DNA from: an uncultured Elusimicrobia bacterium
GTDB lineage: Bacteria; Elusimicrobiota; Elusimicrobia; 2-01-FULL-59-12
Direction: 5' to 3'
Assembly (NCBI GenBank): GCA_964441955.1
Contig: CAYTWA010000007.1
Coordinates: 71,555 to 135,554 of the forward strand
Length of the DNA stretch: 64,000 nt
This document shows positions 26,570-56,000 of this stretch, one piece after another. Under the pieces are notes generated by a model, which was given only the letters and a program-made list of their open reading frames with translations, ran no database searches and had not been told where the DNA came from. Every line of letters starts with the position of its first letter. Position 1 is the stretch's first letter. Made by a program: the position numbers and the translations under genes.

Positions 26570-28204
26570 TCAGTAGCCGCTGTAAAGAATAAGCGAACAA
26601 ATGATGAACACTAAAATGGCAAACGTCCAATGAATACCGCGGGTCATGGCATCGCGTTTAAGGGTTTCCACCTGAAGGTCGCGAAGTTCCAGGTAGGGGG
26701 TTTTCTTCCCGCGGAGCCACCCGTGAACGACGGCGTCTTTGTCGTTGAGCTTTGCCAGGTTTGAGACGCCGAAAAGCCCCGCGGCCAAATTCCACCCGGA
26801 GTGGCGATCCAACGGGAGAGCTTTTTCATCAACCCGTAAATGCCACACCATCGAGGCTTTTTCTTTAGCGCCGACGAGTCGCCCTTTAAACTCCTGCAGC
26901 GATCTTTTGGAATAGAGCACCTCGATTTTAGGCATACGCGCTAAGGACCAAGTCCAAACCATCCAAGTGGCGGCATAAAACCATTCGAATTCGTAGGCGG
27001 TCAGCCAATGAAGGAGGAGTGCCCCAACGGGCAGCACGGTAGGTAAAACAAGCAGGGCTCGCTGCTTAAACGGTCGTTTGGGAAGCGATTCCACCATTTG
27101 AGGCAACGCGGGTTTGGGAGGCTCCTGAGGTTTTGGCGTGGGTGTGACTATGGGGGGCGGCACCGGTTTTGGCGCTGGCACTGGTTTTGGTGTTTCGACA
27201 GGCTTAGGAAGTTCCGCGGGGTTAGGTGTTTTTTTCTTGTCGTCATCCCCGCGGATGGGTAGCGGGGATTCAGTGTCTTTAGGCGACGTCTTCGCCGTCG
27301 GTTGGGCGGTTTTTTTAGGTCCGGAAAACAATTGGCTGAAAAAGCCTGGCTTCTTTTGAGCCGTGGAAACAAAAGGTTTGGCTTTGGGTGGCTCAACGGG
27401 CTTTACCGGTGTGGGTGGTGGAGCAGGAATCTCCACGGGTTTTTCAGTTTCAAGCGGTTTAGCGGGCTCGGCTGGAGGAGCGGTTTCTGGTTTGGCTAAT
27501 TCCGCGGGCTTTACAGGTACGGGTGTCGGGTCTGGGATCGGTGTCGATATCGGGAGCGGCGTTGGTTCAGGTGCAGACATCGGCAAAGGCTCCACACTTT
27601 TAACCACCGGCTCTTCTTTTATCTTCGGCTCAATTTTCTTGGGCGTGTCTGAGGGTTTCTTTTCTTCTTTACTGACTCGCTTAACCGCTTTCTCGCTTTC
27701 TTTGGCCGGGGGCATGTTCGCGCCCAAACGGTCCGCGGTTTTTTCGAGCGACTTGGCCATGGACTTCAAAGCTTTGGCCAAGGGATTGGGTTTTATGGGT
27801 TCTACTTCTAAGGTTTCCATGCGCGGTTTGGCCTCATGCGCCGCCAATTCCACTTGTTCGCGAAGGGAACGTTCCAGCGCGCGGTCAAAAACGGCCAAGG
27901 TGCGAAAATCAATCCAAACCCCGCGGTCTGAGGGGCAAAACGTGAAAATGAGCCCGGCCGTTTTCGAGCGGCCTTGCTGCAGCTTGCCGTTGCATTTCGG
28001 GCACGAACGGGCCGTGGCCAACTTGTAGTCGTATGCTTCCTCGAAAGCGGTTTTAAAACGGGCATGGTCATCACTAAAGCCGTCCAGCGTGCTTTGGTCG
28101 GACCAAAGGAAGGCGCAAGACGGGCACTGGTACACCGTGCCATGCGTGGTTTTGCGCGCCTGCAACTCCATCCCATCACAAGTCGGGCATTTCATTGGGG
28201 ACAA
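26570..28204 (-). CDS. Membrane protein with two N-terminal zinc ribbons and a long Pro/Lys/Glu-rich low-complexity linker
   Basis: 'CPTCDG..CPSC' and 'CPKCNG..C' ribbons. About 200 aa of PxxP/PKP repeats, then TM segments and a C-terminal domain. Confidence 0.6.
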   Translation of the reverse strand: MSPMKCPTCDGMELQARKTTHGTVYQCPSCAFLWSDQSTLDGFSDDHARFKTAFEEAYDYKLATARSCPKCNGKLQQGRSKTAGLIFTFCPSDRGVWIDFRTLAVFDRALERSLREQVELAAHEAKPRMETLEVEPIKPNPLAKALKSMAKSLEKTADRLGANMPPAKESEKAVKRVSKEEKKPSDTPKKIEPKIKEEPVVKSVEPLPMSAPEPTPLPISTPIPDPTPVPVKPAELAKPETAPPAEPAKPLETEKPVEIPAPPPTPVKPVEPPKAKPFVSTAQKKPGFFSQLFSGPKKTAQPTAKTSPKDTESPLPIRGDDDKKKTPNPAELPKPVETPKPVPAPKPVPPPIVTPTPKPQEPPKPALPQMVESLPKRPFKQRALLVLPTVLPVGALLLHWLTAYEFEWFYAATWMVWTWSLARMPKIEVLYSKRSLQEFKGRLVGAKEKASMVWHLRVDEKALPLDRHSGWNLAAGLFGVSNLAKLNDKDAVVHGWLRGKKTPYLELRDLQVETLKRDAMTRGIHWTFAILVFIICSLILYSGY

Positions 28205-28209
28205 GGATA

Positions 28210-28608
28210 TCAGGTCCAGTCGGCCATTTTAAGGTGGGGAATGCGTGAGAATTCCCTGGTGTTGTGTGTGATGAGGGTTGAATTCAAGCTTAAGGCATGT
28301 GAAGCAATGAGGAGGTCGTAGGCGCCGATAGGCACACCGCGACGTTCCAGGTCCACGCGCAGGCGCCCGAAATGATCGGCGCAAGAGGTGTCCAGAGGAA
28401 GAACCGGAATGGCGGCCGTCAGTTCGTGAATGGTGCTTAAGTTTGTTGCCACGCGTTGGCTTTTTCGGGCGCCGTAAATTAACTCCAGATAAGTGACGAC
28501 CGACATCCCCGTTTCTCCGGCAGGCAGTTTTTCAAATCGAGCCAGGAGAGCGGGTGAACTTTTTTTGGCGATGTAAATGCAGATATTGGTGTCGAGAAGG
28601 TAGCGCAT
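28210..28608 (-). CDS. vapC: VapC PIN-domain toxin
   Basis: 'MRYLLDTNICIY' plus conserved acidic residues of the PIN fold. Confidence 0.85.
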   Translation of the reverse strand: MRYLLDTNICIYIAKKSSPALLARFEKLPAGETGMSVVTYLELIYGARKSQRVATNLSTIHELTAAIPVLPLDTSCADHFGRLRVDLERRGVPIGAYDLLIASHALSLNSTLITHNTREFSRIPHLKMADWT

Positions 28609-28838
28609 TACAAGCGGGCACGTTTTTGAGGCTTGGGTTGCTGGCGCCCCTCTGCGAAGAAGTCACTCGAAAGGCGAGTTAAAAGCGCATAGGCATGAGC
28701 AAGCGAGTGGGGTTTTTCGCGGATCACCAGATCAGCCCCCTTCCTGAAAATTTCCACTCGTTTACAGGTCAAGTGAAACTTTCGAGGAATGCGAACCGCT
28801 TGAGAGTTTCCACTTCGAAACACTTTGGTTGTCGCCAT
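28608..28838 (-). CDS. vapB: VapB antitoxin (AbrB/SpoVT-like)
   Basis: 'VFRSGNSQAVRIPRKF' swapped-hairpin motif immediately upstream of vapC. The track ORF has an 11-aa extension. Confidence 0.7.
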   Translation of the reverse strand: MATTKVFRSGNSQAVRIPRKFHLTCKRVEIFRKGADLVIREKPHSLAHAYALLTRLSSDFFAEGRQQPKPQKRARL

Positions 28839-28877
28839 GCGTGAAGTATACACGCCATGTATATACGTCACAAGGGC

Positions 28878-29549
28878 TTATTTTAGATTGGAGATGTGGT
28901 ACGTGGCCGAAGGGTCGAAAGGGCCGCCGTCGCGTTTGAGGCGGCCTTGGGTTTGAAGCTGGGTTAGCAGGCGTGCCATGCTGCGGCGGGGGATGGCCAG
29001 CGCCTCGGACAAGGCTTTGGGGGTTTGCGGGCCGTTGGCGCGGACGTATGAAACGATTTGCTCTTCTTCCGAAGCGTCAGAAGGGGGTAAGCCCGCGGCG
29101 CTGGGGGAGCCACCCGTCACCGCCTGGCGTGCCCGCGGTGTCCGGCGAAACTGGCGAAGCGCATAGGCGCCGAAGAAGACGCTGATCACTTTAATGGTGG
29201 TTTCTTTAAGTTCCGGCGGCATCGGGCGAGTGGGGTCGGCAATCCGCCAAACCCCCGCTGCCAACAACAGCAACACCCAAACCGTGATGATCGGCCCGCC
29301 TTTTCTAATCTTCTCCGGCCAGCCCCCCGCGTCTTCGGGTTCCGTGTCTTTCATCCAGCGCTTGATCTCGGGGGCCCCCGCATACGCCACCAAGAAGACC
29401 ATATAAATATCGCTCCACGAATCCGGCGAGTAAAACGCCCCCCGGGTCCACAAATAGAGCGCATTCAAGGTTATGAGAAACGCCGTGCCCCCCAAGGCAA
29501 AAGGTCTCATAAACAAGCTGCCATCCTTCGTTTGCGGTAACTCTGCCAA
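28878..29549 (-). CDS. Membrane-anchored winged-helix (MarR/ArsR-like) protein, paralog 1
   Basis: 3-4 N-terminal TM helices and a C-terminal '..EEQIVSYVRANGPQTPKALSEALAIPRRSMARLLTQLQTQGRL' wHTH. About 45% identity to the ORF at 50052..50726. Confidence 0.55.
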   Translation of the reverse strand: MAELPQTKDGSLFMRPFALGGTAFLITLNALYLWTRGAFYSPDSWSDIYMVFLVAYAGAPEIKRWMKDTEPEDAGGWPEKIRKGGPIITVWVLLLLAAGVWRIADPTRPMPPELKETTIKVISVFFGAYALRQFRRTPRARQAVTGGSPSAAGLPPSDASEEEQIVSYVRANGPQTPKALSEALAIPRRSMARLLTQLQTQGRLKRDGGPFDPSATYHISNLK

Positions 29550-29570
29550 AGTAATGGAATTATAGTGATT

Positions 29571-29671
29571 TTGGCATGGTTCCTGGCAGGGTTCTGCTTG
29601 CGACAGTAATTTAGTGCCAAAATCTCATTTGGCAGGGTTATTAAGACTATTTGGCATGGTTTGGCAGGGTT
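29571..29671 (+). repeat. Array of five direct repeats TGGCA(T/G)GGTT (starts 29572, 29584, 29630, 29652, 29662), plus two inverted TGCCAAA half-sites at 29541 and 29614, in the divergent promoter region
   Basis: Read directly in the sequence. The last two copies are tandem at a 10-bp period. Confidence 0.6.
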
Positions 29672-29707
29672 GCGCCGTGGCGTCTTTTTGGATATTATGA
29701 AGCCACC

Positions 29708-30481
29708 ATGTCAGCCTTAGTCTTATCCAACATTTCTAAAATTTACCGCCGGTCTCACCTGGGCCGGACGAAAGAAACCGCGGCCATTCAGAGTTTGTCC
29801 CTCGAGGTGCGCGCGGGGGAAGTGTTTGGGCTGCTCGGCTTAAACGGGTCTGGGAAAACCACGACCATCAAAATGCTTTTGGGGCTTTTGCGGCCTACCC
29901 AGGGAACGATCCAGGTTCTTGGCCGCGCCATGCCCGACCGCCAGGTGCTCGCGCGTGTGGGGTATCTTCCCGAAGCGGCGTATTTATGCAAATGGATGAC
30001 TGGCCGCGAAGCGGTAACGCTTTTTGCCACGCTTTCTGGGATCCCGGCGTCTTCTCGAAAAAAGGCCGTTACCGATATTCTGGAACGTGTGGGAATGACC
30101 GTGGCGGCCGACCGCAAAATTGGCGAATATTCCAAAGGGATGCTGCAGCGTATCGGCATGGCACAAGCACTCGTCCATGACCCCGAACTGTTGATTTTTG
30201 ATGAACCCATCACCGGACTAGATCCTTTGGCGGTCAAGGATATGCGCCAGTTGGTGGCGTGGCTCAAAGCCAAAGGCAAAACCGTTTTCTTTTCCTCGCA
30301 CGATATGTCGGAAGTCGAAAAACTTTGTGACCGCGTCGGCATTTTAGCGGGCGGGCACCTGGCGCTCACCGCCGAACAAAAAGACTGGCGCGACCGCCCC
30401 GGACATTTAGAAGAGCTTTTTACCGCCACCGTTAAACGATCCGATGCGATCGGAATGCTTCAATTCAATGAAGGAGAATAA
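29708..30481 (+). CDS. ABC transporter ATP-binding protein (ABC-2 exporter type)
   Basis: Walker A 'GLNGSGKTT', signature 'YSKGMLQR' and Walker B 'LIFDEP'. Confidence 0.85.
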   Translation: MSALVLSNISKIYRRSHLGRTKETAAIQSLSLEVRAGEVFGLLGLNGSGKTTTIKMLLGLLRPTQGTIQVLGRAMPDRQVLARVGYLPEAAYLCKWMTGREAVTLFATLSGIPASSRKKAVTDILERVGMTVAADRKIGEYSKGMLQRIGMAQALVHDPELLIFDEPITGLDPLAVKDMRQLVAWLKAKGKTVFFSSHDMSEVEKLCDRVGILAGGHLALTAEQKDWRDRPGHLEELFTATVKRSDAIGMLQFNEGE

Positions 30482-30488
30482 GTTGGGG

Positions 30489-30555
30489 CAGAGGGAGTGG
30501 GAGTCGAGGTTGTTTTTATTGAAAGGGCCCTTAACCTCGACTCCCACTCCCTCTG
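30489..30555 (+). other. Perfect 23-bp-stem hairpin (cagagggagtgggagtcgaggtt / aacctcgactcccactccctctg, 21-nt loop) between the ABC ATPase and permease genes
   Basis: Exact reverse complement verified by eye. Confidence 0.7.
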
Positions 30556-30571
30556 TCGTTGCTTCTACCTA

Positions 30572-31336
30572 ATGGACCGTCTTTTCAGCATCATCCGCTA
30601 CACTTTTCAAGAGCATTGGCGCAACCGCGTTTATTTGACGGTGATTCTCTTTGGCGCCATCTTGCTGGGCGGGGCCTTGGTGGTTTCTAGTTTGGCGGTG
30701 GATGCACGCCTGCGCATGCTGAGCGATTTGGGTTTGGCGGCCATTGAATTTATTTCGCTCATCGCTGTGGTATTTGTGACGGTCAATTTAATTCTCCAAG
30801 AAGTAGAAAGCCGAACCATTTACTTGCTGCTGTCGCATCCCTTGCCGCGCTGGCAATATTTGCTGGGGCGCTATGCGGGCACCCTCTTGGCCATAGGGGT
30901 CGGCATGCTGGCGATGGCGGCGCTCCATGCAGGGCTTTTAGGTTTATTTGGATTTACGGCTTTTAAAACGTATGCCGTTTCGCTATTGTGCGCGGTCGCC
31001 AAAGTGCAAGTGGTGGGAGCGGCAGCCTTGTTCTTATCTCTGTTGGCCACCTCGGCGCCCACGGCGATGACGTTTACGTTATTTCTTTGGATGGCCGGTC
31101 ACTTTTCCAGCGAAATGAAATTTTTAGCCGAACGGTCGGCTAACCCGCTGATCAAAGTCGGGGTCTCATTTTTTTATTACGTAGCGCCTAACTTTAGCTA
31201 CTTCAACTATCGCGACTTTGCCGATGCAGTGGCTCCCTCCTATGCCTGGTTTGGTTGGTTGGCCGGTTACACCGCCGCCTATACCGTTGTGTGTTTGGCC
31301 CTTTCTCATGTCCTTTTTGCGAAGCGCGAATTCTAA
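30572..31336 (+). CDS. ABC-2 family transporter permease
   Basis: Six hydrophobic segments downstream of the ATPase. Start is at MDRLFSII. Confidence 0.6.
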   Translation: MDRLFSIIRYTFQEHWRNRVYLTVILFGAILLGGALVVSSLAVDARLRMLSDLGLAAIEFISLIAVVFVTVNLILQEVESRTIYLLLSHPLPRWQYLLGRYAGTLLAIGVGMLAMAALHAGLLGLFGFTAFKTYAVSLLCAVAKVQVVGAAALFLSLLATSAPTAMTFTLFLWMAGHFSSEMKFLAERSANPLIKVGVSFFYYVAPNFSYFNYRDFADAVAPSYAWFGWLAGYTAAYTVVCLALSHVLFAKREF

Positions 31337-32051
31337 AGTTCTTTTCGGGGCGCTTCTCCTAGGGGGCATCAGCCTTCGGGGGTTGCATCATGCTTACGCG
31401 CTGCCTTGGCCTCCCCTTTCGACGTTTTCGGCTGGCCCCGAAGCACTTCAAGATATGTCGTTGGTGGTAGGCGGGTTTCGTCGTTTAGCGGCGGATATGG
31501 CCTGGGTGCAAATGCTGCAGTATATGGGCACCTCGTGGGCGCGCACGCAAGCTGATGAACACGGTCATGAAGGCCATCATCACGATTTGTACGACATCAC
31601 GGAAAAACAAGAAGGCGCCTATGGTCGGCTTAAAGAATTAGCGCTTCGTATCGGGTGGTTGGATCCGTATTTTAAAGAAGCCTACTTGTATGCCGCAGGA
31701 ATTTTGGCCTGGTCCCCCATGGTTGACCGGCCCGAAGAAGCGGTATACGTCCTTCAAGAGGGTCAGCGCGCCAGCCCCGACTATTGGCCCTTTAAAACCT
31801 ATATGGCGGCCATTCTCTACAAAAAGCAGGCTCGCGCCTCGGAAATGACGCATTTATTAGAAGACTCCATCCGCCAACCCGGCTGCCCGACGATGGTCAA
31901 ATCGATCTTAGCCAATTACTACAAATCCCAGAAACGCTACGCCGACGCATTGCGAGTGTGGCAACGGGTCCTAGAAAACCCATCCGATGCCGTCTACCAT
32001 GACACCGCCCGCCGGCAAATGGACCAGCTCATCCCCATGCTTGGGAAATAA
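31308..32051 (+). CDS. Hypothetical secreted protein with His-rich segment (HEGHHHD)
   Basis: Signal-like N-terminus. It overlaps the permease 3' end. Confidence 0.35.
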   Translation: MSFLRSANSKVLFGALLLGGISLRGLHHAYALPWPPLSTFSAGPEALQDMSLVVGGFRRLAADMAWVQMLQYMGTSWARTQADEHGHEGHHHDLYDITEKQEGAYGRLKELALRIGWLDPYFKEAYLYAAGILAWSPMVDRPEEAVYVLQEGQRASPDYWPFKTYMAAILYKKQARASEMTHLLEDSIRQPGCPTMVKSILANYYKSQKRYADALRVWQRVLENPSDAVYHDTARRQMDQLIPMLGK

Positions 32052-49519: not shown

Positions 49520-50055
49520 CTGCCGCGGTCTTTTTGATGGTATTTCTGCCGCTCTTTGGCTGGGCCGCTCAAAACGCGGAAAGGGCGCGACAGTTTATCG
49601 TCATGGGTTATCAAGGCTTGGTCCAAGAAGTCGCTGAAAACCGGCGAGGGGCGTATCTCAACACGCTAATCGATTTGTTGAAGATTCCATCCGATCAACA
49701 ACCCCAGGCCATCGAGAAAATTGAAGTAGCCGCCAAAGCCTATCCGAACATCATGGATTTTGCGGATCATGTGCTGGCGCAGGAGCCTCTGCTTGGAGTC
49801 TTGAACTCCACGGCAGCTGTTTCAGCAGCCATCCCCGCTCTCCCGGCTAGTGCCACCTTTTATACGGGACCCGGTCTCGAAAACGCCCTTAAGCATTTGG
49901 CTAAAGGAATGAGCGTCACGGTGTATACGAAGTCCGATGAAACTGTAAAAGGAAAAGTGGCTGACTACGATTCCCGCCGTTTATGGCTTAGAACACCGGC
50001 CATGAAATCCTTCAGGCTTCAAGACATCCAAGCCCTTGAGGCTCCGGACCTTTAA
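49501..50055 (+). CDS. Hypothetical secreted protein
   Basis: Signal peptide 'AAVFLMVFLPLFGWAAQ'. Overlaps the upstream gene. Confidence 0.35.
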   Translation: MLFQRLAAAVFLMVFLPLFGWAAQNAERARQFIVMGYQGLVQEVAENRRGAYLNTLIDLLKIPSDQQPQAIEKIEVAAKAYPNIMDFADHVLAQEPLLGVLNSTAAVSAAIPALPASATFYTGPGLENALKHLAKGMSVTVYTKSDETVKGKVADYDSRRLWLRTPAMKSFRLQDIQALEAPDL

Positions 50056-50726
50056 GGGTGTGGCGACGCGGCATAGGTTGGGTTTGGGTCGCGCGGGGAT
50101 GTGGCCTTTCGCGTGATGCGGTTCTGGTTTAATAATTCAGTTAGTGAGCGGGCCAGCGTACTGCGGGTGAGGTTTAAATCCACGCGCAAGGTTTTAGGGG
50201 TGGAAGGGCCGCGTGTGGTGAGATAGTCCATCACCTGCGCGTTGGTGTCTGCGACCTCTTCACTTGGGTTTAAATCCTCTTGCACTTGGCCGCGGCGCAC
50301 AGAGCGGCGGCGGATTTGGCGCAGAGCGTAGGTCCCAAAGAAAAGCCCCATCACCTGAAGTAAAATCGTCTTTAGCTCGGGCGGCATGGGCACGGTGGAG
50401 TCATGAATGCGCCACAGCACCGCCGCCGCCCAGAGCAAAAACCACAGCGTCACCAGGGGCCCGCCTTTTCGAATTCGTTCGTTCCACCCCTGGGGGTCTT
50501 GGTCTTGCCCTTGAGACCAGCGCTTAATTTCCGGTCCACCCGCGTAGGTCGCCAGAACAAAAAAATACACATCCGCCACCGCATCGGGAGAGTGAAAAGC
50601 CCCGCGAGTCACCATATAAAGCCCTATATACCCCGCCAAATAAGCCGTCATCCCAATTGCAAACGGCCGCATATAGAGGCTGCCATCGGAGGAGGGCTGA
50701 AGGGGGGTGTTTTCCAACTGACTCAT
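50052..50726 (-). CDS. Membrane-anchored winged-helix protein, paralog 2
   Basis: Same architecture as 28878..29549 and ~45% identity to it ('SDGSLYMRPFA..RGAF.SPD..YAG.PEIKRW..RIRKGGP..PMPPELK..'). Confidence 0.55.
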   Translation of the reverse strand: MSQLENTPLQPSSDGSLYMRPFAIGMTAYLAGYIGLYMVTRGAFHSPDAVADVYFFVLATYAGGPEIKRWSQGQDQDPQGWNERIRKGGPLVTLWFLLWAAAVLWRIHDSTVPMPPELKTILLQVMGLFFGTYALRQIRRRSVRRGQVQEDLNPSEEVADTNAQVMDYLTTRGPSTPKTLRVDLNLTRSTLARSLTELLNQNRITRKATSPRDPNPTYAASPHP

Positions 50727-50747
50727 GTGCCCAAGTATAGGTAATAA

Positions 50748-50837
50748 ATGAGGCAGTCATGAGGCAGTTAGTTCCTAAGAGGGAAAACGCCGGTTTTCTG
50801 AAAATATGAGGCAGTTATGAGGCAGTTGTGAGGCAGT
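50748..50837 (+). repeat. Five direct repeats (A/G)TGAGGCAGT at 11-bp period (50748, 50759, 50806, 50817, 50828) upstream of paralog 2
   Basis: Read directly in the sequence. Confidence 0.65.
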
Positions 50838-50969
50838 AATAATCTGCTTTGGTTATGAAAACTGACACACCCCCCTAAAAACACTCAAAGGCCCACCGTA
50901 TCATTGACATTCGACCGGTAAGCCCATAGACTTCTAATCGATGCCAAACCCGCAGCGGCGAAAGCGTTC

Positions 50970-51713
50970 ATGATGTCTTTTGGCTCTATTGAAGGGTCTG
51001 TGGCTTTGCTCATTGGGGGGCCTGCTCTCTTGGGCTGGGGGCTGCGCACCTTTCAAAAAATGCGTTTTCTTCAAAACGTGCCTCGTTCAAAAGTACGCTC
51101 GGCCGCGATGGGAATTGTGGAATTACACGGCCAAGCGCGTATCGCCCAACCCCTGGTGTCCCCTGTGTCTAATCGGCCGTGCTGTTGGTGGCGCTGCCAA
51201 GAACAGGAATACCAAGTGCATGGCAAGCAATCCCGGTGGGTGACGCTCTCCGATACAAACAGCTTGAATTCTTTTTTTCTTGAAGATGAAACGGGACGCG
51301 TTCGAATAGACCCGGCCGATGCCGAGTTGCACATACCCAGCACGACGACCCCTTCCGGTTTCAATCGCCGTCATATCGAACAAATCATTTTTGAGTATTC
51401 CCCGTTATACGTCATAGGGTTTAGACGCTCGGCCCCTGGGCAGGGGGAAGACCGGATCGTCATTGGTTCGGCGCCGGGCAGCTTATATATTTTATCGACG
51501 TACGATGAAAAAAACCTTATCCTGCGTTGGAAGTGGGCCGTGCCCTCCGCCATTGGGGGAGGAATGGGCTTAACAGTTTTTGGCCTTTATCTTTCCCAGA
51601 AGGCCGATTTCCCCATTTGGCTTGCGGCCGGTGCGCTGGCTGTCGGCGCGATCGTCGCGCTAATTACAGATGCGAAAGGAGCCTTTCAATGGCGCTTATC
51701 CCGTTGGTCGTAA
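50970..51713 (+). CDS. Hypothetical membrane protein (N- and C-terminal TM), upstream partner of LemA
   Basis: ORF with TM segments at both ends. Overlaps the lemA start. Confidence 0.35.
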   Translation: MMSFGSIEGSVALLIGGPALLGWGLRTFQKMRFLQNVPRSKVRSAAMGIVELHGQARIAQPLVSPVSNRPCCWWRCQEQEYQVHGKQSRWVTLSDTNSLNSFFLEDETGRVRIDPADAELHIPSTTTPSGFNRRHIEQIIFEYSPLYVIGFRRSAPGQGEDRIVIGSAPGSLYILSTYDEKNLILRWKWAVPSAIGGGMGLTVFGLYLSQKADFPIWLAAGALAVGAIVALITDAKGAFQWRLSRWS

Positions 51714-52246
51714 TGGTGCTGGTCGTGTTGGTGGTTGGGGTTTATATCACCAGTCTTTATAACGGTTTGGTGATGCTTAAAAACAACATCGAAAAAGCCT
51801 GGTCCAATATCGACGTGCTTTTAAAACAACGCCATGATGAATTGCCCAAGCTCGTCGAAGTCTGCAAAGGGTATATGGCGCATGAAAGCGGCGCGTTGGA
51901 GAAAGTGATGAACGCTCGGCAAGGTCTTATAAGCGCCCAAGGCCCCACGGCCAAAGGCGAGGCGGAAGGTCAGCTGCAGGGCGCGCTGCGGCAGCTTTTT
52001 GCTTTGGCGGAGAGTTATCCCGATTTGAAGGCGCAGGCGTCGTTCGCGCAGCTCCAAACGCGGATTTCATCTTTGGAATCGGAAATCGCCGACCGAAGGG
52101 AGTTCTATAACGAGTCGGTGAACACCTACAATATCCGCATCGAATCGATCCCTGACACCTTTTTAGCCAAATTCCTCACCTACACTAAGAAAGAAATGTT
52201 TAAGGTCGACGTTCACGAGCGAAACGACGTGAAGATCCGCTTTTAA
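51689..52246 (+). CDS. lemA: LemA-family protein
   Basis: N-terminal TM and LemA-like sequence 'YNGLVMLKNNIEKAWSNIDVLLKQRHDELP..ESYPDLKA'. Confidence 0.75.
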   Translation: MALIPLVVMVLVVLVVGVYITSLYNGLVMLKNNIEKAWSNIDVLLKQRHDELPKLVEVCKGYMAHESGALEKVMNARQGLISAQGPTAKGEAEGQLQGALRQLFALAESYPDLKAQASFAQLQTRISSLESEIADRREFYNESVNTYNIRIESIPDTFLAKFLTYTKKEMFKVDVHERNDVKIRF

Positions 52247-54779: not shown

Positions 54780-56000
54780 ATGTTCATTCCAAAACTGATT
54801 GTTTGTTTTCGTGAAGGCTATTCCTTCAAGCAATGGCTTCAAGACCTTCAAGCGGGGTTTGTGGTGGGGCTGGTGGCATTGCCATTGGCGATGGCCTTTG
54901 CCATTGCCAGCGGCTTGCCGCCGGAACGCGGACTCTATACCGCGATTGTGGCCGGGTTTTTAATTTCAGCGCTCGGGGGAAGCCGTGTGCAAATCGGCGG
55001 CCCCACCGGCGCATTCGTTTCGGTGGTTGCCGGTATCGTCGCGCAGCATGGCTATGAGGGGCTAGCGATCGCCACCTTCATGGGCGGCGTTATCTTAATT
55101 GTGATGGGCTTAAGCCGTTTGGGCACGTGGGTAAAATACATTCCGAACCCAGTCATCACAGGGTTTACCTCGGGTATTGCCGTCGTCATTTTTCGTGGCC
55201 AACTATCCGAAATAATCGGGCGACACCATGCGCCATGGAACCCTTGGGCATTGGCGCTATCCACGAGTACCGCTCTTGGAATATTTCTGTGGCCGAAATC
55301 CTGGAAAAAGTTTCCCGCGCCTGTGGCCGCCCTTTTGGGCATGACCGCGATCGCCGCTTTGGCCCATCTCCCCGTGGAAACCATTCAAAGTCGCTTCGGC
55401 GCCGTTGCGCAAACGCTCCCGGCGCCCTCCTGGCCAGACCTGTCGCTTGCGCACATTGGCCAGCTGCTTCCCGCGGCCATCACCATCGCACTGTTGGGTG
55501 CCATTGAATCCTTATTATCGGCTATGGTGGCCGACCGTATGATGAGTGGACGTCACAAATCTAATCTAGAGTTGGTCTCTCAAGGAATCGCCAACATGGT
55601 CTCCCCGATTTTTGGCGGGATCCCGGCGACCGGCGCCATTGCGCGCACCGCCACCAACATTCAAAATGGCGGGCGAACGCCGGTTGCCGGGATGACGCAC
55701 GCCTTGGTTTTGTTGGGAATCATTGGGGTAGCCGGTGCCTGGGTGGCCTACATTCCCATGGCGGTCCTCAGCGGAATATTGATTGTCGTGTGCTTCCATA
55801 TGTTTGATGGGCGAAGGTTCCGCTCGCATCTTAAAGACCCTGTGCATGAGCGCGTGGTGCTGCTGGCGACATTCCTTTTAACCGTGACGGTTAACTTGAC
55901 GGTCGCCGTAAGCGCAGGCTTAGCATTGGCGGCCGTTTTTGAGGTGATTAAGCGACGAGGTTCTCCGGCTTGCCCGCCAAAAACACCTGGATGTTGCTGA
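54780..56000 (+). CDS. SulP-family anion transporter membrane domain lacking a C-terminal STAS domain
   Basis: SulP TM-core similarity. The ORF ends at 406 aa and overlaps a convergent gene. Confidence 0.7.
   Translation: MFIPKLIVCFREGYSFKQWLQDLQAGFVVGLVALPLAMAFAIASGLPPERGLYTAIVAGFLISALGGSRVQIGGPTGAFVSVVAGIVAQHGYEGLAIATFMGGVILIVMGLSRLGTWVKYIPNPVITGFTSGIAVVIFRGQLSEIIGRHHAPWNPWALALSTSTALGIFLWPKSWKKFPAPVAALLGMTAIAALAHLPVETIQSRFGAVAQTLPAPSWPDLSLAHIGQLLPAAITIALLGAIESLLSAMVADRMMSGRHKSNLELVSQGIANMVSPIFGGIPATGAIARTATNIQNGGRTPVAGMTHALVLLGIIGVAGAWVAYIPMAVLSGILIVVCFHMFDGRRFRSHLKDPVHERVVLLATFLLTVTVNLTVAVSAGLALAAVFEVIKRRGSPACPPKTPGCC

Follow-up and report, generated by a model that had tools for sequence, protein, structure and literature searches.

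The stretch of 64,000 nucleotides (nt) analysed here, in the following called the window, originates from an uncultured Elusimicrobia bacterium (GenBank assembly GCA_964441955.1, contig CAYTWA010000007.1, positions 71,555 to 135,554). It carries two paralogous genes, each encoding a small protein with a predicted membrane domain and a C-terminal winged helix-turn-helix (wHTH) domain, and each preceded by an array of short repeats. Our analysis indicates that the first of these proteins, paralog 1, is probably an autoregulated transmembrane one-component transcription regulator belonging to an uncharacterised family, with the repeats as its putative operators. The features of the paralog 1 locus are listed below, with positions given in the window and offsets counted from the start codon.

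28878..29549, minus strand: gene of paralog 1, the putative transmembrane transcription regulator, 223 amino acids (aa), TTG start at 29549 (from the open reading frame (ORF) list and the family alignment)
29142..29522, minus strand: predicted four-helix membrane domain, residues 10-136 (AlphaFold2 helices, hydropathy, invariant columns, and counts of lysine plus arginine, K+R)
29085..29141, minus strand: predicted flexible linker, residues 137-155 (predicted local distance difference test, pLDDT, 55-60; length and sequence vary in the alignment)
28893..29084, minus strand: predicted C-terminal minimal wHTH, residues 156-219, with recognition helix 188-200 (RRSMARLLTQLQT)
29539..29549, minus strand: inverted box copy TTGGCAGAGTT, the first base of which is the first base of the start codon; the box of its own array is AACCCTGCCAA
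29559..29564, minus strand: -10 hexamer TATAAT, 9 nt upstream of the TTG
29571..29593, minus strand: proximal box pair, AACCATGCCAA at offset -32 (29571-29581) and AACCCTGCCAg at -44 (29583-29593)
29615..29621, minus strand: isolated inverted half-site, TTTGGCA in gene orientation, within the 46-bp gap between the clusters
29629..29671, minus strand: distal cluster, 11-mers at -90 (29629-29639), -112 (29651-29661) and -122 (29661-29671)

A preliminary description of the locus had reported five direct copies of TGGCAKGGTT and two inverted TGCCAAA half-sites upstream of the gene, and counting, shuffling and an independent repeat search all bear this out. The motif TGGCAKGGTT has five matches in the window, all on the plus strand (29572, 29584, 29630, 29652 and 29662) and all five inside 100 bp. 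Dinucleotide-preserving shuffles contained 0.33 matches on average and 2 at most, and 0 of 100 shuffles reached five copies or more. Tandem Repeats Finder independently returned pairs at 29572-29594 (period 12) and 29650-29671 (period 10). The inverted half-sites are found at 29544-29550 and 29615-29621, and by itself the 7-mer TGCCAAA shows no enrichment over the window (22 observed, 17 expected). The proximal pair spans the place where a -35 element would be expected, and the distal cluster is located 46 bp further upstream. The half-site at 29615-29621 falls at approximately -72, and some relatives have an inverted copy at approximately -77 to -80; its significance is uncertain. Neither in the 64-kb window nor in the relative loci of about 10 kb was a second box cluster found, isolated exact matches being at chance level, and no boxes are present downstream of the gene. 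One more repeat from Tandem Repeats Finder (54874-54909, TGGCATTGCCAT) resembled the box and was rejected as transporter coding sequence.

The second gene of the window is organised in the same way:

50052..50726, minus strand: gene of paralog 2 (P0022), 224 aa, 48% identity to paralog 1 (tblastn E = 6e-55)
50716..50838, minus strand: putative operator set of paralog 2, box AACTGCCTCAT
50734-50739, minus strand: -10 hexamer TATACT

Its array holds five direct copies with an 11-bp period, at -32 and -43 (50748-50769) and at -90, -101 and -112 (50806-50838), and an inverted copy ATGAGTCAGTT occupies the start codon (50716-50726). The box (ACTGCCTCA) is unlike that of paralog 1; it reads ATGAGGCAGT on the plus strand and ACTGCCTCAT in gene orientation, and the boxes of the two window paralogs differ at no fewer than 5 of 11 positions.

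The same arrangement recurs throughout the family. A box array is present upstream of the gene in 18 of 18 family loci (the two paralogs of the window, L001-L006 and L008-L017; L007 and L006 are one gene), with three to eight boxes in the relatives that were fetched. The box itself differs between clades, and at least eight different box sequences occur among the 18 loci. In gene orientation they are:

AACCMTGCCAA: window paralog 1, L005, L015
AAGCATGCCAA: L008
AACTGTGCCAA: L009
AGCTCTGCCAA: L012
ATGCCGGCCAA: L017
AACTGAGCCAW: L001, L002, L006, L011
AACTGCCTCAT: window paralog 2, L003
AACTGCGTCAT: L014
GAAGTGACTCA: L013
ACTTAGACA: L010, L004
AGCTTGGACAA: L016

When each of the 17 closer relatives was scored with its own 11-mer, a common layout appeared in spite of the different sequences. 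Proximal direct copies are placed at -32/-33 and -44/-45 from the start codon with almost no variation, and distal direct copies, two to four per locus, at -90 to -92, -101 to -103, -112/-113 and -122 to -125. The gap between the clusters measures 46-48 bp in 10 of 17 loci, and 35 of 54 spacings between neighbouring copies are 10, 11, 12 or 13 bp. The period of the resulting lattice, approximately 11.2-11.5 bp, exceeds the 10.5 bp of the B-DNA repeat. Deviating orientations occur in L009 and L010, where the distal boxes are inverted, and in the distant L004 (36% identity), which has three direct boxes and then one inverted box upstream of the -10 hexamer.

These comparisons also dispose of the explanation that the repeats are sigma-54 promoter elements or chance low-complexity sequence. 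TGGCAT and TGGCAG do resemble the -24 element TGGCAC, but the likeness ends there: within 29650-29676 the GG-GC spacing is wrong, the GC of TGGCATGGTTTGGCA being one base too close and that of TGGCAGGGTTGC far too close, and the relatives carry unrelated boxes (ACTGCCTCA, TTAGACA, TGCCGGCCAA) at the same positions. Chance repeats are excluded by the shuffles. We consider this explanation refuted by the comparative data and almost certainly wrong.

Regarding the protein, the preliminary description had proposed three to four N-terminal transmembrane (TM) helices followed by a MarR/ArsR-like wHTH. Hydropathy of paralog 1 gave two strong and two weaker hydrophobic segments, and the AlphaFold2 model, built on a family alignment of 29 sequences (mean pLDDT 86.8), contains long helices at residues 10-34, 45-67, 85-104 and 114-136, bringing the number of helices to four. 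The C-terminal part, residues 156-219, is modelled as a compact three-helix domain with a beta wing. Over the 29 sequences the mean K+R count is 5.3 in loop 2 and 5.2 just after TM4, compared with 1.3 in each of loops 1 and 3, and this positive-inside bias assigns the two termini to the cytoplasm, and the wHTH with them. A cytoplasmic wHTH is therefore predicted, as a DNA-binding role would demand and as the topology check proposed earlier had asked. The label "MarR/ArsR-like" holds for the fold and not for family membership. MarR_2 (PF12802) scores 17.9 bits against a cut-off of 27, HTH_20 (PF12840) 13.3 bits against 27, and HTH_5 (PF01022) has no match in paralog 1, which speaks against both MarR (PF01047/PF12802) and ArsR/SmtB; also, the N- and C-terminal dimerisation helices of the MarR type are absent, the model after the linker consisting of three helices and a wing only. 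Trans_reg_C (PF00486) gave no match at E <= 0.1, and searches of Pfam, NCBIfam and PADLOC with the regulator gave sub-threshold wHTH matches only. By their defining features the protein is not of the ToxR/OmpR, MarR or ArsR family. The membrane domain, presumably the sensor, is without a Pfam, NCBIfam or PDB match; a weak Brp/Blh match for paralog 2 (E = 0.005) is not convincing.

The promoter of the regulator gene appears to be incomplete. A consensus scan of 29480-29760 found no complete sigma-70 -35/-10 promoter for it, and no Shine-Dalgarno sequence is evident at the gene. As judged by eye, 15 of 17 loci have a TAnnnT hexamer at a distance of 4-10 nt upstream of the start codon. Because the -10 hexamer is so close to the start codon and no -35 element is seen, the mRNA is probably leaderless and expressed from a -10-only promoter with the proximal box pair in the -35 region. 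The start codon itself needs a correction. The public protein P0001 starts at Met14 (29510) and has 210 aa, but the conserved motif DGSxFMRPF is located upstream of Met14, and this motif, the -10 hexamer and the start-site box combined make the TTG at 29549 the probable true start of paralog 1. P0003, P0010 and P0024 likewise seem to have been called too short, and L014 (P0027) too long. Across the array, a divergent ABC ATPase gene likewise lacks a Shine-Dalgarno sequence, and a -10-like TATTAT (29693-29698) precedes its ATG by 9 nt; the organism may commonly produce transcripts that are leaderless or nearly so.

The start codon is also where the inverted box copy is found. In each locus, the 11 nt counted from the first base of the start codon match the box in reverse complement. 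The match of this site to the locus's own box averages 8.8 of 11 positions, to the boxes of other loci 6.9, and control regions give 5.6-5.8. The observed total was reached by 0 of 20000 permutations of boxes among loci, and for 14 of the 17 loci the best-matching position is the one that starts precisely at the start codon. Five loci may serve as illustration:

Paralog 1: start-site copy TTGGCAGAGTT, array box AACCCTGCCAA
Paralog 2: start-site copy ATGAGTCAGTT, array box AACTGCCTCAT
L009: start-site copy TTGGCACAGTT, array box AACTGTGCCAA
L012: start-site copy ATGGCAGAGCT, array box AGCTCTGCCAA
L017: start-site copy ATGGCCGGCAT, array box ATGCCGGCCAA

Of its 11 positions, the copy of paralog 1 shares 10 with TTGGCAGGGTT, the array consensus in inverted form. 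On this comparison the first three to four codons of the genes (MAQ, MAE, MAG, MSQ, MTQ, MSN) are set by the putative operator, and the residues that follow vary freely up to the conserved DGSxFMRPF motif. In L001, L002, L006 and L011 the start-site copy is ATGGCGCAG, whereas the inverse of CTGAGCCAT would be ATGGCTCAG; the deviation is synonymous, GCG and GCT both encoding Ala. A consistent deviation from the array consensus at the start codon was noted at 50716-50726 in the window as well. Such consistency suggests a deliberately weaker site at +1.

The relation between boxes and coding sequence could in principle operate at the level of RNA, with boxes in read-through transcripts pairing with the start-codon region so that only the leaderless transcript is translated. 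The direct boxes are indeed the reverse complement of the first 11 coding nt, to the extent of the mean match given above. However, pairing leaves the presence of five to eight copies, their one-turn spacing and their fixed positions in the -35 region unexplained, and it does not account for the link between recognition helix and box class described below. The distal boxes of L009 and L010 share the orientation of the start site and hence are not complementary to it, the inverted copy of L016 and L004 is off the start codon, and Rfam has no match in the window. We find an RNA device very unlikely.

If the boxes are read by the wHTH domain, box and recognition helix should change together, and three classes can be distinguished. 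Proteins with the helix signature (I/L)PRR(S/T)x go with boxes ending GCCA(A/T), those with x(T/A/S/P)RS(T/S)x with boxes ending C(C/G)TCA, and those with (N/S)RRxLGR with boxes ending GACA. Inside the GCCA class, helix positions 191-192 covary with the 5' half of the box: VA or MA is found with CCMT or GCAT, VT with CTGA, LL with CTGT, LS with CTCT and LG with GCCG. R188, R193 and R206 are invariant in the alignment. Covariation of this kind is expected if the recognition helix reads the DNA directly, and we take it as supportive rather than conclusive because the classes are also clades. Together with the array found in every relative, it lends comparative support to the earlier proposal that the repeats are the protein's own operators. 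The two paralogs L001 (3130-3260) and L002 (5840-5975), from the same Elusimicrobiota metagenome-assembled genome (MAG), have the box AACTGAGCCAW in common, and their recognition helices begin identically (LPRRTVTRLLAVL); unlike the two paralogs of the window, they should cross-regulate each other.

The family is small by one search and larger by another. A word-indexed search of 5.8 billion clusters returned 29 relatives only, all unnamed, 185-240 aa long and of the same architecture. An exhaustive profile search of 1.84 billion representatives returned 362 matches at E <= 1e-3 and 88 at E <= 1e-10; among the 150 profile matches listed, many are full-length proteins of approximately 200-270 aa with four TM helices plus wHTH, and others match the generic wHTH alone. 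Four of the profile matches (P0052, P0061, P0075 and P0095) are long proteins with 4-11 tandem winged-helix domains (Pfam HTH_11 and HTH_24 arrays). Proteins of this type would be natural binders of tandem direct repeats, and their likeness to the family is probably generic wHTH similarity. The best-conserved part of the family alignment is the membrane domain, with invariant residues D43, Y49, Y56, E61, K83, G84, P86, W91, R102, P111, E113, L114, F125, G127, R132 and R135. In the genome collection the only matches were three paralogs from one Elusimicrobiota MAG. The literature search on architecture and layout found neither the family nor its operator layout described.

Direct repeats with an inverted copy at the promoter of the binding protein also occur in plasmid Rep systems, which have iterons plus an inverted copy at their own promoter. 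The repeats might thus be origin iterons, or recombinase arm sites, of an iteron-type replicon or mobile cassette, and the toxin-antitoxin genes beside 8 of 17 distinct loci and the variable neighbourhoods would agree with that. The genes are, however, chromosomal with two to three copies per genome, and no homologue was found in 72,556 plasmids, 50,697 phages and IMG/VR. The contigs that carry them are 141 kb and 216 kb long, and some of the genes adjoin housekeeping genes, for instance the hemE-like ORF in L015; no integrase, transposase or Rep gene is found nearby, and no downstream boxes mark the ends of an element. The single 65-aa wHTH is not the tandem winged-helix fold of Rep proteins, so that the comparison with iteron Rep proteins fails both on the lack of a plasmid homologue and on the fold. 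A replicon or mobile cassette is highly improbable.

The genes surrounding paralog 1 are the following:

28210-28871, minus strand (the regulator's strand): VapB/MazE-like gene, then PIN (VapC) gene, after the regulator
29708..31336, plus strand: divergent ABC ATPase gene (29708-30481) and ABC-2 permease gene (30497-31336), assigned by Pfam; the linkage is not conserved

The preliminary description had taken the array as a shared operator controlling both the regulator and this divergent ABC-2 exporter. In such a scheme the protein would be a dedicated exporter regulator, its membrane domain sensing the substrate or the state of the transporter. Membrane-bound one-component regulators of ABC transporters are known, BcrR being an example, and locally the layout would permit it: the boxes at 29651-29671 abut the -35 region of the TATTAT promoter, ending 37 bp before the ABC start codon. 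Furthermore, L011 (1-1921) contains orthologues of the ABC, ABC-2 and TPR-like genes of the window (29708-32051; 80, 68 and 49% identity) within 3.5 kb of a family member that has a different box (CTGAGCCAA), again adjoined by a VapBC pair. Gene order and orientation in L011 are rearranged relative to the window, and the regulator at that position may have been replaced or have diverged quickly.

The remaining evidence does not support joint control of the exporter. The flanking genes differ in nearly every locus, the regulator gene being the only constant partner of the array. ABC-2 genes flank 1 of 18 loci, namely window paralog 1, and neither of its closest relatives, P0003 (68% identity) and P0002 (64%), has adjoining ABC-2 genes, their neighbours being different ones. 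In L011 an 853-aa gene has been inserted between the ABC operon and the array, and the operon points towards the array. The gene divergent from paralog 2 has its own sigma-70-like promoter (TTGACA-17-TAGACT, 50904-50932) more than 60 bp from the boxes. Finally, the distal cluster keeps about the same distance from the regulator start codon in most loci, whatever gene is found upstream. Since the neighbours are not conserved, control of the ABC-2 operon is unsupported beyond the window locus, where local co-regulation is possible because the distal boxes abut the -35 region of the ABC promoter. A dedicated exporter regulator is thus improbable, and a self-regulating membrane sensor is the most likely identity of the protein.

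A few observations on other neighbours should be mentioned. Toxin-antitoxin genes are the immediate neighbour of the regulator in the eight loci referred to above (window 28210-28871; L005 1379-1783; L006 1720-3174; L010 5730-7320; L011 5594-6156; L012 3217-3717; L016 497-1967; L017 1929-2611) and comprise VapBC, MazE-PIN, PIN_3, HipBA, AbiEi/AbiEii and DUF6036. This adjacency may be more than chance. AAA_14/DUF4143 ATPase genes adjoin the regulator in L009 and in L010, which is also one of the eight. In L013 (5696-6277) the regulator gene shares 4 nt at its 3' end with a gene for a membrane protein of the Bax inhibitor-1 family; the latter gene is probably co-transcribed with the regulator and is the only likely operon partner seen. 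Divergent from paralog 2 (50970-52246, plus strand) are genes for a 247-aa membrane protein without a family match and then a LemA/MamQ-like protein (NCBIfam MamQ 82.9 bits, under its cut-off), neither of which is kept beside the paralog-2-type relative L003. In the window, 26570-28204 (minus strand) encodes a 544-aa protein of unusual architecture, with two N-terminal TFIIB-type zinc ribbons (Pfam Zn_ribbon_TFIIB), a long proline/lysine-rich low-complexity middle and C-terminal hydrophobic segments.

Putting protein and operator together, we propose the following mechanism for the autoregulated membrane regulator. The four-helix membrane domain would be tied by a flexible linker of approximately 20 residues to the cytoplasmic minimal winged helix, and monomeric wHTH domains would bind the 11-bp boxes (AACCMTGCCAA for paralog 1) head-to-tail, about one helical turn apart, so that neighbouring subunits could reach the DNA from the same side, that of the membrane. 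Occupancy of the sites would then set the level of the regulator itself. Binding to the proximal pair (-22 to -44) would replace the missing -35 element and give activation and positive feedback, and the inverted copy, slightly degenerate and located at about +1 to +11, would block initiation at high occupancy and give repression. The distal cluster may add cooperativity and hold the locus at the membrane. We favour such dual control, with pure repression by all sites being nearly as likely.

A role in holding the locus leads to the most serious rival, which partly overlaps our model and is not exclusive of it. The wHTH proteins could form a multi-copy, centromere-like complex that tethers the chromosomal locus to the membrane, e.g. 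for co-transcriptional insertion or chromosome organisation, with promoter repression as a by-product. An arrangement of five to eight iteron-like boxes, split into two blocks ahead of the gene that encodes the binding protein, is reminiscent of tubC (PMC6009700), a period of 11-11.5 bp instead of 10.5 bp would fit a wrapped or untwisted complex, the protein is predicted to be membrane-integral, and no other targets are seen within 64 kb. The centromere-binding wHTH protein AspA was also among the structural matches, at low rank. On the other hand, no NTPase of the ParA, ParM or TubZ type is found among the called neighbours in any locus, relatives are not found on plasmids, phages or viral contigs, and a geometry locked to the -10 hexamer and the start codon points to transcription control. 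We consider tethering as the primary function unlikely. A related and equally unlikely idea is that the system is a self-contained membrane-DNA coupling device and not a conventional signal-to-regulon switch, in which an untwisted TubR-like assembly would occupy positions 0, 3, 4, 8, 9, 10 and 11 of the lattice and pin the leaderless gene to the membrane. If this were true, the start codon embedded in an operator would couple transcription, translation and membrane insertion to the protein's own occupancy, and the conserved four-helix domain would carry a real membrane function.

Several points weigh against autoregulation as we have described it. What the analysis shows is the fold, the predicted topology, the arrays with their fixed geometry, and the covariation of box, start-site copy and recognition helix. 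Every functional step is one that we infer, and this includes binding to DNA, whether regulation is positive or negative, the leaderless start, the sensed signal and targets elsewhere. The 64 kb searched contain no further target, and a regulator that controls itself alone would be odd. The Pfam wHTH scores are below threshold, and conservation is higher in the membrane domain than in the DNA-binding domain, so that an activity of the membrane domain itself may be the main function. With a period of approximately 11.2-11.5 bp the two clusters are out of phase and the sites are not simply all on one face; they would come into phase only on untwisted DNA. The covariation of box and helix is partly confounded by common descent, and the permutation test for the start-site copy ignores shared descent too, yet the copy has tracked at least five to six independent changes of the box. 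Finally, the start-site copies of L013 and L014 are poor (6/11 and 7/11), and in L016 and L004 the inverted copy is upstream of the start codon.

The preliminary description had called the architecture unusual. This does not hold for membrane-tethered regulators as a class, since transmembrane transcription regulators (TTRs) are abundant: a survey of 9,673 genomes counted 50,302, and 27% of these have more than two TM segments (PMC10269533, Demey et al.); it does hold for this particular family and its operator layout. With a DNA-binding domain and, by prediction of topology, at least one TM segment, the regulator falls within the operational TTR definition (PMC10269533). A precedent is ToxR, a membrane-tethered wHTH protein that binds tandem sites exactly 10 bp apart as well as in an inverted mode and recruits DNA to the membrane (PMC10629549). 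Like ToxR, CadC and TcpP, the family is predicted to be one-component, to stay in the membrane and to have a cytoplasmic winged helix, and the site layout lets us propose, as for ToxR, several monomers in tandem about one helical turn apart together with an inverted mode. The architecture of ToxR comprises an OmpR-type domain at the N-terminus, a single TM segment and a sensor domain in the periplasm. In the present family, which has no sequence relationship to ToxR, the DNA-binding domain is C-terminal and follows a compact four-helix domain with short loops, and unlike the degenerate ToxR sites the boxes are sharply defined 11-mers in a fixed lattice at the protein's own gene.

The proximal pair has its counterpart in the pho box of PhoB, where two head-to-tail repeats of approximately 11 bp replace the -35 element. 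As in PhoB/OmpR pho-box promoters, two repeats of approximately 11 bp at about -22 to -44 accompany a -10 hexamer without a -35 element, and one wHTH monomer per repeat is proposed. The wHTH is of a different type, however, there is no receiver domain or phosphorylation, the distal cluster and the inverted copy at +1 are extra, and activation is conjectural here. The control logic that we propose, a leaderless transcript governed through adjacent operators, resembles that of the C proteins of restriction-modification systems, in which leaderless autogenous control gives activation at low and repression at high occupancy; unlike our proteins, those are soluble dimers with an Xre-type HTH; their targets are palindromic C-boxes, and they lack a membrane domain. 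Binding of TubR to the split tubC array represses the promoter and untwists the DNA (PMC6009700). The family shares with TubR-tubC and ParR-parC the short direct-repeat arrays in blocks directly upstream of the gene of the binding protein, and differs from them in having no partner NTPase, in being chromosomal and membrane-integral, and in its shorter arrays of five to eight boxes. From MarR, ArsR and IclR proteins it is set apart by the sub-threshold Pfam scores, the lack of flanking dimerisation helices and the use of direct-repeat rather than palindromic operators. The TTR class was already known; the family described here adds to it a new membrane domain, a C-terminal minimal wHTH and an unusually rigid, self-directed putative operator lattice that includes the start codon.

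Collectively, the analysis defines an unnamed protein family and corrects the annotation of paralog 1, which probably starts at TTG 29549. It also presents a case where coding sequence appears to be constrained by an operator, the first codons being dictated by the box. The comparative signal is exceptionally clean and lends itself to direct testing. The 17 natural protein-operator pairs of fixed geometry constitute a data set for readout by a minimal winged helix and for the insulation of paralogs within one genome. With tandem boxes, a split array and a start-codon site all visible, the family would offer a test case for how a membrane-confined regulator engages promoter DNA.

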